Of a stretch of 12,311 bases of DNA, positions 1,614 through 2,190 are shown in pieces. The stretch is from IMG/VR virus record IMGVR_UViG_2563366990_000020, positions 1 to 12,311 of that record. One strand, given 5' to 3'. The first letter of the stretch is position 1. Each line of letters opens with the position of its first letter. Under the pieces are notes generated by a model. That model saw nothing but the letters and a program-made list of their open reading frames with translations. It made no database searches and was not told the DNA's origin. A program made the translations under genes and the position numbers. This DNA is from a virus (lineage: Duplodnaviria > Heunggongvirae > Uroviricota > Caudoviricetes).

Positions 1614-1643
1614 TTACGTCCGTTACGTGCAACGGATGACGTG
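1614..1643. repeat. three closely spaced TTACGT / GACGT motif copies
   Basis: TTACGT at 1614-1619 and 1623-1628, and GACGTG at 1638-1643. Part of a dispersed TTACG(T/C) motif family that recurs at 1801-1807 (inverted, ACGTAA), 2025-2047 and 2148-2190. Confidence 0.7.
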
Positions 1644-1685
1644 GCTGTTTTTCCTTCCCCTTCGCCATCCTTTTTCGGAGCAGTT

Positions 1686-1705
1686 GTGCAAAAGTGTGCA
1701 AAAGT
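1686..1705. repeat. perfect tandem direct repeat GTGCAAAAGT x2
   Basis: Read directly: GTGCAAAAGT at 1686-1695 and again at 1696-1705, followed by G. The reverse complement contains TTTTGCACA twice with 10-bp spacing. Confidence 0.9.
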
Positions 1706-1869
1706 GATTTTTGTTGCCACTCCCCGCCAGGCCGCGCCAGTTCTGGCTTTCCTGATTTTTTCGTTTTCGTCGCCGGATCCTTTTTCAGATCTTCGATCGT
1801 GACGTAATTTTAAAAATCTCTTGTTATTCAGTGCATTAAAATTTTTCGGGATCCTCAGAAAGCCGGAGT

Positions 1870-1980
1870 TTTTGCACACTTTTGCAAAACCTTGCACAAA
1901 GTGCAAAACCATTCAGAAGGGAAAACCTCAGTAATGGCGCGCCCTGGCGGGGTGTTTTGCACCCATTTCGATTTGCAAAA
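1870..1980. repeat. cluster of TTTTGCA(C/A) motif copies in both orientations, including palindromes
   Basis: TTTTGCACA at 1870-1878; palindrome TTTTGCAAAA at 1880-1889; inverted repeat TTGCAC-AAA-GTGCAA at 1892-1906; TTTTGCACC at 1955-1963; ATTTGCAAAA at 1971-1980. Same motif family as the tandem repeat at 1686-1705. Confidence 0.75.
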
Positions 1981-2024
1981 TTTATCGTACACAAATACCG
2001 GAGGCGTGTGCGGGGTAGCGCCGA

Positions 2025-2047
2025 TTACGTCACTTTACGCGTTACGT
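2025..2047. repeat. three TTACG(T/C) motif copies
   Basis: TTACGT at 2025-2030, TTACGC at 2035-2040, TTACGT at 2042-2047. Confidence 0.7.
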
Positions 2048-2147
2048 CGCCCCCGAAAATTTCCGGCCATTTGCGGCGATTTTGGGGCGCAGAAATCGTT
2101 TTCTGATGTCAGGGGATCGAATCGGGCTGGCGGGATTATTTCTTCGT

Positions 2148-2190
2148 TACGTGGCGTTACGCGACGTTTTACGTGGGGATTACGTGGGGC
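2148..2190. repeat. iteron-like direct repeats of TTACG(T/C)G, including a tandem 11-bp repeat TTACGTGGGG(A/C) x2
   Basis: TTACGTGG at 2148-2155, TTACGCG at 2158-2164, TTACGTGGGG at 2170-2179 and TTACGTGGGG at 2181-2190 (11-bp period, close to one helical turn). Confidence 0.85.

Follow-up and report, generated by a model that had tools for sequence, protein, structure and literature searches.

In phages P2, 186 and P4, the cohesive-end site (cos) has 19-nucleotide (nt) 5' cohesive ends, and the P2-type terminase, composed of gpP and gpM, is encoded by the same element. In phage lambda, cos is composed of three parts, cosQ, cosN and cosB, and harbors the sites R1-R3 for gpNu1 as well as a site for integration host factor (IHF); packaging specificity differs between lambda and phage 21. 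For the P2 family, a conserved core of 55 base pairs (bp) has been described (Ziermann and Calendar 1990, as cited in PMC5694545 and PMC9122126). The P2 cos is located beside the portal gene, Q, while the cos of HP1 and HP2 adjoins the phage attachment site, attP (PMC2771037). Here, we describe a repeat-rich region of about 580 bp, at approximately 1614-2190, in a 12,311-nt stretch of DNA from a tailed virus (Caudoviricetes; positions 1 to 12,311 of IMG/VR record IMGVR_UViG_2563366990_000020), which is referred to as the window below. This region is quite probably the extended cos region of an HP1-like prophage of the P2 family, in which the repeats would be recognition elements of the terminase.

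The 19-mer and the expected position of cos

In the genome of HP1 (U24159), 192 bp separate the end of orf35 (32163) from the right cohesive end (32355), while cosL, attP and int are annotated at 1-9, 251-694 and 698-1711, respectively. In HP2, K139, phiO18P, F108 and ESSI-2 the orf35 homologue is located about 165-220 bp from the end of the record. The circular gene order of phage SI7, i.e., orf35, cos region, GTGTCCACA repeats and int, matches this arrangement, and HP1 and K139 share with the window the order orf35, terminator, cos, attP, int. Because of this synteny within the HP1 group and the reported location of the HP1/HP2 cos (PMC2771037), the stretch downstream of the window orf35 is the place where cos is expected. 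The window gene that serves as synteny anchor (2315-3988, minus strand, 557 amino acids (aa)) is the last tail gene; it encodes an orf35-like baseplate/spike protein (PHROG 2258, baseplate, E = 2e-241), which is 38% identical to HP1 orf35. An intrinsic terminator at 2282-2300 (minus strand) marks the end of the tail operon and bounds the cos region on the orf35 side, analogous to terminators tQ and tW, which in P2/186 are found between cos and the converging late gene.

Downstream of the orf35 homologue, 293 bp after its stop and on the attP side, the window harbors the putative cohesive-end sequence, cosN, at 2003-2021 (GGCGTGTGCGGGGTAGCGC in the plus-strand reading, GCGCTACCCCGCACACGCC on the minus strand). 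Searches of a phage collection with megablast and blastn had returned only the hok part of the window and, for the Salmonella phages SI7, SW5 and SW3, a weak similarity over 142 bp, the latter being a useful lead. Prophage relatives were fetched with the orf35 protein, which gave 26 loci, of which 24 were examined. In 22 of these 24, from Citrobacter to Brenneria, a family form of the 19-mer, GC[AG]CTACACCGCACCCGCC on the orf35-sense strand, is found exactly; one of the remaining two loci differs by a single substitution and in the other the contig ends before the site. The sequence is also found in Cronobacter phage ESSI-2 and Yersinia phage vB_YenM_324. Its distance from the end of orf35 is 161-199 bp in most loci; additional genes in between raise it to as much as about 800 bp in others.

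Three independent phage records display termini or an assembly anomaly at this very sequence. The ESSI-2 record (HQ110083) has a terminal redundancy of 15 nt inside the 19-mer, with CTACACCGCACCCGC at both record ends. The SW5 record (MK972713) is linearized inside the 19-mer with an overlap of 2 nt, i.e., it ends with ...GCGCTACACCGC and begins with GCACCCGCC..., and in SI7 (MK972712) 7 nt (CTACACC) are missing at the 19-mer as compared to a near-identical Citrobacter prophage relative. Taken together, these records suggest that the virion DNA ends at the 19-mer.

The family form, written as GGCGGGTGCGGTGTAGCGC, agrees with the P2 cohesive end, GGCGAGGCGGGGAAAGCAC, at only 12 of 19 positions in an ungapped manual alignment in the plus-strand orientation, as compared to 4 of 19 in the opposite orientation. 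Both sequences are GC-rich, begin with GGCG and end with AGCRC, and the overall likeness to the cohesive ends of P2 and 186 (GGCGTGGCGGGGAAAGCAT) is moderate. Phage K139 harbors a recognizable 19-mer, GCGCTCCTCTACACCCGCC, which is preceded by CACGTAATCG and CACGGAATCC, and it keeps the TTTGGAT that follows. The HP1 end sequence differs from the window 19-mer in that it gives no confident alignment (about 8 of 19 by eye), and its cosL is annotated as 9 nt, not 19.

A further likeness to P2 and 186 is found on the right-end side. On the plus strand, and relative to the first position of the cohesive end, TGCA-type motifs are located at -29, -101, about -111 and -120 in the window; the corresponding offsets are -29, -101, -111 and -123 for TGCAT in P2, and -29, -35, -101, -111 and -120/-124 in 186, i.e., the three sites have in common motifs at -29, -101, about -111 and about -121. 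The element at -29 falls inside the 55-bp core, and the window has, as do P2 and 186, a TGCATTAAAACCG-type element about 29 nt before the end together with copies further upstream. The conserved region of the window extends over about 500-580 bp, as compared to the 55 bp of the P2-family core, and the window cos would be located after the last tail gene and beside attP rather than beside the portal gene Q.

A 9-mer, TCCTTCCCC, at 1652-1660 is identical to the annotated cosL of HP1. It is flanked by the distal TGCAAA pair and the far TTACGT cluster (see below) and lies on the opposite strand relative to orf35. The likelihood of a chance match is about 0.005 for one 9-mer in a comparison that was made post hoc, and outside the Escherichia (E.) coli lineage no relative has the 9-mer at this place. 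Given its orientation, the match is probably coincidental and TCCTTCCCC is not considered an HP1-type cosL.

Two repeat families at fixed distances from the 19-mer

A preliminary description of the window reported at least ten copies of TTACGT or TTACGC (collectively TTACGY, here motif 1), and this number was borne out. Within 1600-2200, copies start at 1600 (minus strand), 1614, 1623, 1802 (minus strand), 2025, 2035, 2042, 2147, 2157, 2169 and 2180 (n = 11). Dinucleotide-preserving shuffles of this interval (601 bp, n = 5000) contained on average 0.73 copies and at most 6, and none of the 5000 reached 11; the enrichment is about 15-fold. The entire window contains 21 copies as compared to 8.1 expected from whole-window shuffles, while the strict form, TTACGT/ACGTAA, occurs 8 times in 1600-2200 and once in the remaining 11.7 kilobases (kb). 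The tandem repeat with an 11-bp period reported for the last group was also recovered (TTACGTGGGG(A/C) twice at 2169-2189, period 11, 100% match), except that this group begins at 2147 rather than at 2148. A second repeat, TGCAAA/TTTGCA (here motif 2), is as enriched as motif 1, with 9 copies observed and 0.78 expected in 1600-2200. This repeat, a GC-rich inverted repeat with 27-nt arms at 1719-1745 and 1929-1955, a tandem repeat of period 10 (GTGCAAAAGT, 1685-1706) and the conserved 19-mer at 2003-2021 are features that the preliminary description did not include.

The same description named two findings that would speak against its reading, i.e., a repeat frequency as expected from local composition, and an origin of the region as decayed coding sequence. 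The shuffles speak against the former. With regard to the latter, a hypothetical protein of 96-111 aa is annotated in RefSeq over 1607-1912 (minus strand) in related genomes (e.g., WP_238873752.1 and WP_224083737.1), which would be in line with a coding origin of part of the region. However, translated similarity to relatives in a six-frame comparison is equal in four frames on both strands, i.e., no reading frame is preferentially conserved, and scans of the two longest open reading frames (ORFs) in the repeat region against Pfam and PHROG gave no match. The annotated ORF spans the inverted repeat and the AT-rich spacer and lacks a conserved counterpart; judged from these comparisons, part of the cos region has probably been miscalled as a gene here. 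An Rfam scan of 1-4000 returned sok and weak chance matches only, and no RNA family in the repeat region. Given the about 15-fold enrichment, repeat positions that are kept across genera, and the absence of a conserved frame or a protein-family match, chance clustering or decayed coding sequence is an explanation that we consider refuted for practical purposes.

The repeat offsets given below have as reference point the first position of the 19-mer on the orf35-sense strand. On this scale, the window copies of ACGTAA are found at -164, -153, -131, -26, -9, +393 and +402, and an inverted copy at +214. The proximal cluster of motif 1 (TTACGTC, TTACGCG and TTACGTC; 2025-2047, plus strand; -9 and -26), located on the orf35 side, begins 3 nt from the 19-mer. 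Each of the relatives carries its own variant at -9 and at -26 or -29 (GACGGAA, GACGAAA, GACAAAA or CACGGAA), and CACGGAA/CACGTAA copies are found at the equivalent place in HP1 and K139, such that (C/G)ACG(G/T)AA copies directly precede the end in these two phages as in the window. In HP1, CACGGAAAAT occurs three times and ACGTAA twice just before the end, and a TTACGT is found 17 nt inside the left end. The number of motif-1 copies is larger in the window (8-11) than in HP1 and K139 (2-5).

The distal cluster (2147-2190, plus strand; -131, -153 and -164) is composed of four TTACGY units spaced by 10, 12 and 11 bp and includes the 11-bp tandem. Three relatives (loci L016, L018 and L035) have one ACGGAA at -154 to -165. 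In E. coli JNEC-KY202 and 2013C-3033, a 10-bp indel (2145-2154) removes exactly one TTACGT unit, so that the copy number in this cluster varies; in two other E. coli strains TTACGC and TTACGT are interchanged at 2157-2162 and 2169-2174.

On the other side of the 19-mer, a central inverted copy of motif 1 (GTGACGTAAT on the plus strand; 1799-1808, minus strand; +214) is found in an AT-rich and GATC-rich spacer, and relatives of the TGCAAA lineage have an inverted TTTCCGT at +216. The GATC sites of the spacer are located at 1776, 1788, 1795 and 1850. Across the family GATC, often as GGATC, is conserved at about +27 and at +190 to +230, with the window lacking the site at +27, and a DNA methyltransferase gene is found in the prophage, amid its lysis and tail genes. 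By analogy to pac of phage P1, one may speculate about a Dam-dependent layer in packaging. A far cluster (1614-1643, plus strand; +393 and +402) contains two TTACGT and a degenerate GACGTG; in loci L018 and L028, two TTCCGTC-type copies are found at +406 and +418, in inverted orientation.

The identity of the repeat differs between lineages, while its positions do not. In the closest foreign lineage (Citrobacter, Kluyvera, Buttiauxella, Rahnella, Erwinia and SI7-like E. coli), ACGGAA is found at -154 to -165, -26 and -9, and there is an inverted copy at +216; two loci have further inverted copies at +406 and +418. Between -200 and +440, the window has 8 ACGTAA and no ACGGAA, while seven relatives of the TGCAAA lineage have no ACGTAA and 2-5 ACGGAA. 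Other lineages have ACGAAA or ACAAAA at -9 and -29. From these alignments, TTACGY is seen as the variant, in this lineage, of a cos-flanking motif TTNCGTC (TTTTGTC in one lineage), and copies within one phage tend to share the same N. A recognition site that changes in step with its binding protein would be expected to display just this, a single-base difference that recurs at five or more conserved positions. Motif 1 appears as a feature of the HP1 group, because P2 and 186 have no obvious TTNCGTC copy at their cohesive ends.

Motif 2 is found on the attP side of the 19-mer as an array of TGCAAA/TTTGCA(C/A) in both orientations (1870-1985; +42/44, +60, +114, +133/135 and +145) and as a distal pair (GTGCAAAAGTGTGCAAAAGTG; 1685-1706; +319 and +329) in tandem with a period of 10. 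Relatives of the TGCAAA lineage have motif 2 at essentially the same offsets as the window, while the ESSI-2-like lineage has CTGAAA at +43, +115, +134, +144 and +321/322; at the position of the distal pair, relatives have either TGCAAA or CTGAAA at +321 to +324. The inverted repeat lies within the same region, its left arm (CCCCGCCAGGCCGCGCCAG) at 1719-1745 and its right arm at 1929-1955. The two 27-nt arms are 85% complementary and 183 nt apart. The inverted repeat is kept in ESSI-2, SI7 and relatives of lineage a, and a sequence near the 186 cos, GCCAGAGCTGGCGCGGC, resembles its arms, which adds a GC-rich element (CTGGCGCGGC) to the likeness between the window and 186.

An alignment of the window with six relatives displays conserved islands from about -170 to +335 (window 2191 to 1686), separated by sequence that cannot be aligned. 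These islands are the two motif families, the arms of the inverted repeat and the AT-rich GATC block. As would be expected of terminase recognition repeats, the elements lie at fixed positions beside the putative nick site and differ between related phages.

Linkage to the packaging module and alternative roles of the repeats

The window holds only the tail end of a prophage, and the P2-type terminase genes (gpP and gpM) are known from complete related prophages. The flanking sequence in these relatives, which the preliminary description had pointed to as the place to look, settled the question. None of the three roles that it listed, i.e., replication iterons, arm-type sites of a recombinase and binding sites of a regulator, stands as the preferred reading. 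Its more general suggestion of phased sites near a prophage end, to which a protein would bind repeatedly, is upheld.

The cos regions of the E. coli strains Z1323MEC0001 (NZ_CP148318) and 154 (O22:H8; NZ_CP067426) are 98.5-98.7% identical to the window. The gpM proteins of these two prophages are 98% identical while their integrases are only 50% identical, and the prophages are inserted at different sites, between serS and dmsA in Z1323MEC0001 and between ytfP and ppa in strain 154. On this comparison, the repeats follow the packaging module and not the integrase. The case for binding by the small terminase subunit is this linkage (98% for gpM, 50% for integrase), which makes gpM (36677-37375 of L001, minus strand) a candidate partner of the repeats.

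The same data bear on the possibility that the repeats are arm-type sites of an integrase or excisionase and belong to attP or attR. In its favor, HP1-like phages have attP on this side of the genome, some hundreds of bp past cos, and short, phased repeats are the usual form of arm sites. However, identical repeats occur in prophages whose integrases share 50% identity and act at different att sites, and half of the copies are located on the far side of cos from attP. In addition, hok/sok and a gene for a BRCT-domain protein place the end of the prophage at least 1.6 kb away in the window, and the corresponding distance in Z1323MEC0001 is about 1.15 kb, i.e., at least 1.1-1.6 kb overall. The att junctions examined hold at most one TTACGY each and instead have GTCCA/TGGACA-type repeats, as does attP of SI7. 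The repeats are thus neither close to the prophage end nor linked to the integrase, and an arm-site role is very improbable. No exact direct repeat of at least 10 nt was found as att core in Z1323MEC0001, where the junctions are imperfectly similar serS-terminator hairpins.

A role as iterons of a replication origin, plasmid-like or of a phage theta type, is about as improbable. Iterons are short direct repeats spaced by about one helical turn beside an AT-rich stretch with GATC sites, and phased direct repeats, an AT-rich spacer and GATC sites are all found in the window. Moreover, three of the TGCAAA-type copies read TTTTGCACA and fit a relaxed DnaA-box consensus, TTWTNCACA. Nevertheless, the relatives lose this fit at the same positions (TTTTGCAAA, CTGAAAA or TGCATT), such that the three TTTTGCACA copies were rejected as DnaA boxes. 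In P2, the replication origin is located inside gene A. The replication protein of the complete prophage belongs to the same gpA-type endonuclease family, no gene for an iteron-binding Rep protein is found in it, and, unlike iterons, the window repeats lack a cognate initiator gene and are placed relative to the cos 19-mer.

Of the alternatives, the one that retains some weight, although it is improbable, is that the repeats bind a phage or host protein other than terminase, e.g., a regulator of the cargo genes or a factor sensitive to Dam methylation, and merely share space with cos. There are two repeat families, and terminase need not read both. The GATC sites of the spacer, GGATC at about +27/+200 in relatives, and the phage DNA methyltransferase would fit a methylation-sensitive factor, and variation at the central site (+216) is partly uncoupled from that of the cos-adjacent copies. 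On the other hand, the offsets are fixed to the 19-mer across genera even though the neighboring cargo differs wholly, i.e., hok and the BRCT gene, an AbiH gene, a gene behind a LexA box, or none. The nearest copies end 3 nt from the putative nick, and a promoter scan of 1150-2400 found no promoter-like site. A regulator, as proposed in the preliminary description, is a less economical and less probable explanation than terminase recognition.

Recognition by terminase is the most likely role of the repeats, protein binding being deduced from the arrangement of the sites. In such a scheme, the large terminase subunit (gpP) would, by analogy to P2 and 186, introduce staggered nicks at 2003-2021 to generate a 19-nt 5' overhang, GGCGTGTGCGGGGTAGCGC. 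A gpM-like small subunit would bind the repeat arrays, possibly together with the large subunit. Several protomers could load on a bent or wrapped segment of about 0.5 kb; this would place the nuclease at cosN and restrict packaging to the phage's own DNA. The AT-rich spacer and the inverted repeats may allow the DNA to bend or loop over this distance. The arrays would then be analogous to cosB and cosQ of lambda. What the comparisons show is the position of the region, its conservation, the concerted variation by lineage, the linkage to the packaging module and the likeness to the P2 and 186 sites, while the assignment of repeats to proteins, the precise nicks and any packaging direction are inferences.

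The lambda cos offers the same working model, i.e., a nick site with short recognition repeats that differ with the specificity of the terminase. However, homology to Nu1 or to the R sites is absent at both the protein and the sequence level, and the window repeats are located on both sides of the nick site and reach much further. The window also differs from lambda in that a scan of 1600-2320 with the IHF consensus (WATCARNNNNTTR) gave no match. As compared to P2 and 186, the window has in addition the TTNCGTC repeats on the left-end side, for which there is no evident counterpart in these phages.

A number of observations weigh against an extended cos region recognized by terminase. The window 19-mer has two changes from the otherwise invariant family form, which recur in each of the eight E. 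coli copies that were compared, i.e., the window and seven loci, and the DNA ends of the window phage are deduced from its relatives. As noted above, P2 and 186 have no obvious TTNCGTC beside their cohesive ends. The concerted variation of the repeats is imperfect, since in the CTGAAA lineage the central site is often TTACGT though the cos-adjacent copies are GACAAAA. An alignment of gpM from four phages with different motif combinations revealed no segment that tracks either motif; variability is highest in the N-terminal approximately 45 residues, but a set of four sequences is too small for such a comparison. Finally, the far cluster at 1614-1643 lies outside the alignable backbone and is in direct orientation, while the copies in L018 and L028 are inverted, such that its membership in the cos region is less certain.

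Prophage context, cargo genes and implications for packaging

The window is the tail-gene end of an HP1-like prophage of the Peduoviridae (P2 family). Upstream of orf35, all on the minus strand, are genes for the tape measure protein (9977-12163), baseplate J (8468-9652), an intact tail fiber of 688 aa (5838-7904), a tail-fiber assembly protein (5242-5838), an HP1 orf33-like protein (4505-5230) and HP1_ORF34 (3991-4533; Pfam E = 5e-54). The region is carried by 12 of 5,426 complete E. coli genomes at 96.5-98.8% identity. In Z1323MEC0001 the whole prophage is found between dmsA and serS, with the gene order int, C, cox, a gpA-type replication endonuclease, ogr, portal, terminase, capsid genes and gpM, followed by the tail genes, orf35, the repeat region, hok, hok and serS. 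The complete prophages of Z1323MEC0001 and strain 154 encode the terminase large subunit, gpM, a GPO scaffold, a P2-family capsid and the portal protein; as in P2, the terminase is encoded by the element that carries cos. In these two prophages, the counterpart of the intact tail-fiber gene at 5838-7904 is annotated as a pseudogene in two partial pieces, between which about 500 bp are left without annotation (the pseudogene counterparts are found at 24636-26702 of L001 and 15311-17371 of L007).

On the attP side of the repeat region, the window harbors a complete toxin-antitoxin locus of the hok/sok type (1240-1610, minus strand; Rfam sok at 1439-1597, with a match of 48 bits that is below the gathering score of 59; Hok ORF at 1310-1450, 46 aa) and a gene for a BRCT-domain protein (1-1195; PHROG 36782, function unknown). 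Relatives have 1-3 tandem hok copies between the cos region and the prophage end, and similar hok loci are found beside ogr in other P2-like prophages and in Shiga toxin (Stx) phages. E. coli strain 154 has an intact BRCT gene (398 aa), whereas that of the window is split by a frameshift at a poly-C tract (242-251), which reads C10 followed by G in the window and C12 in strain 154. Decay, phase variation or an error in sequencing could each account for this frameshift.

HP1-like prophages appear to have a cargo slot between cos and attP. This slot is occupied by hok/sok and the BRCT gene in the window (1-1610), by an AbiH abortive-infection gene in E. coli 2011C-4251 (L052, 5766-6731) and, about 300-700 bp past cos in ESSI-2, by a small gene that follows a perfect LexA box (TACTGTGTTTATATACAGT). 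Defense hotspots adjacent to cos are known in P2 and P4 (PMC9122126) and offer a parallel to this slot.

The element described here is of a known kind that was previously unannotated at this locus, and the useful detail is the repeat architecture and its concerted changes between lineages. In the literature searched, we found no description of either, and nothing on terminase binding or the direction of packaging in P2 and HP1 beyond the 55-bp core and the HP1-type location of cos. A broader proposal, which we regard as tentative and somewhat more doubtful than likely, is that HP1-like Peduoviridae use a cos that is unusually long, at about 0.5 kb, and in which two independent repeat families, found on both sides of the nick site, form a two-part code for packaging specificity. 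The families would switch in concert, i.e., TTNCGTC (N = A, C or T) or TTTTGTC for one and TGCAAA, CTGAAA or TGCAT for the other, with the terminase subunits acting on wrapped or looped DNA.

What appeared to be a mystery element is resolved as the probable packaging signal of a rare E. coli prophage lineage. For the packaging specificity of the P2 family, the concerted change at conserved offsets in two motif families amounts to a clean natural experiment, and the pattern offers testable mutations, such as TTACGT to TTCCGT, as well as a route to annotate cos in HP1-like prophages and phage records. If the two-part code is true, the specificity of terminase for cos, and the cross-packaging of satellites and related prophages, would be predictable from sequence alone.

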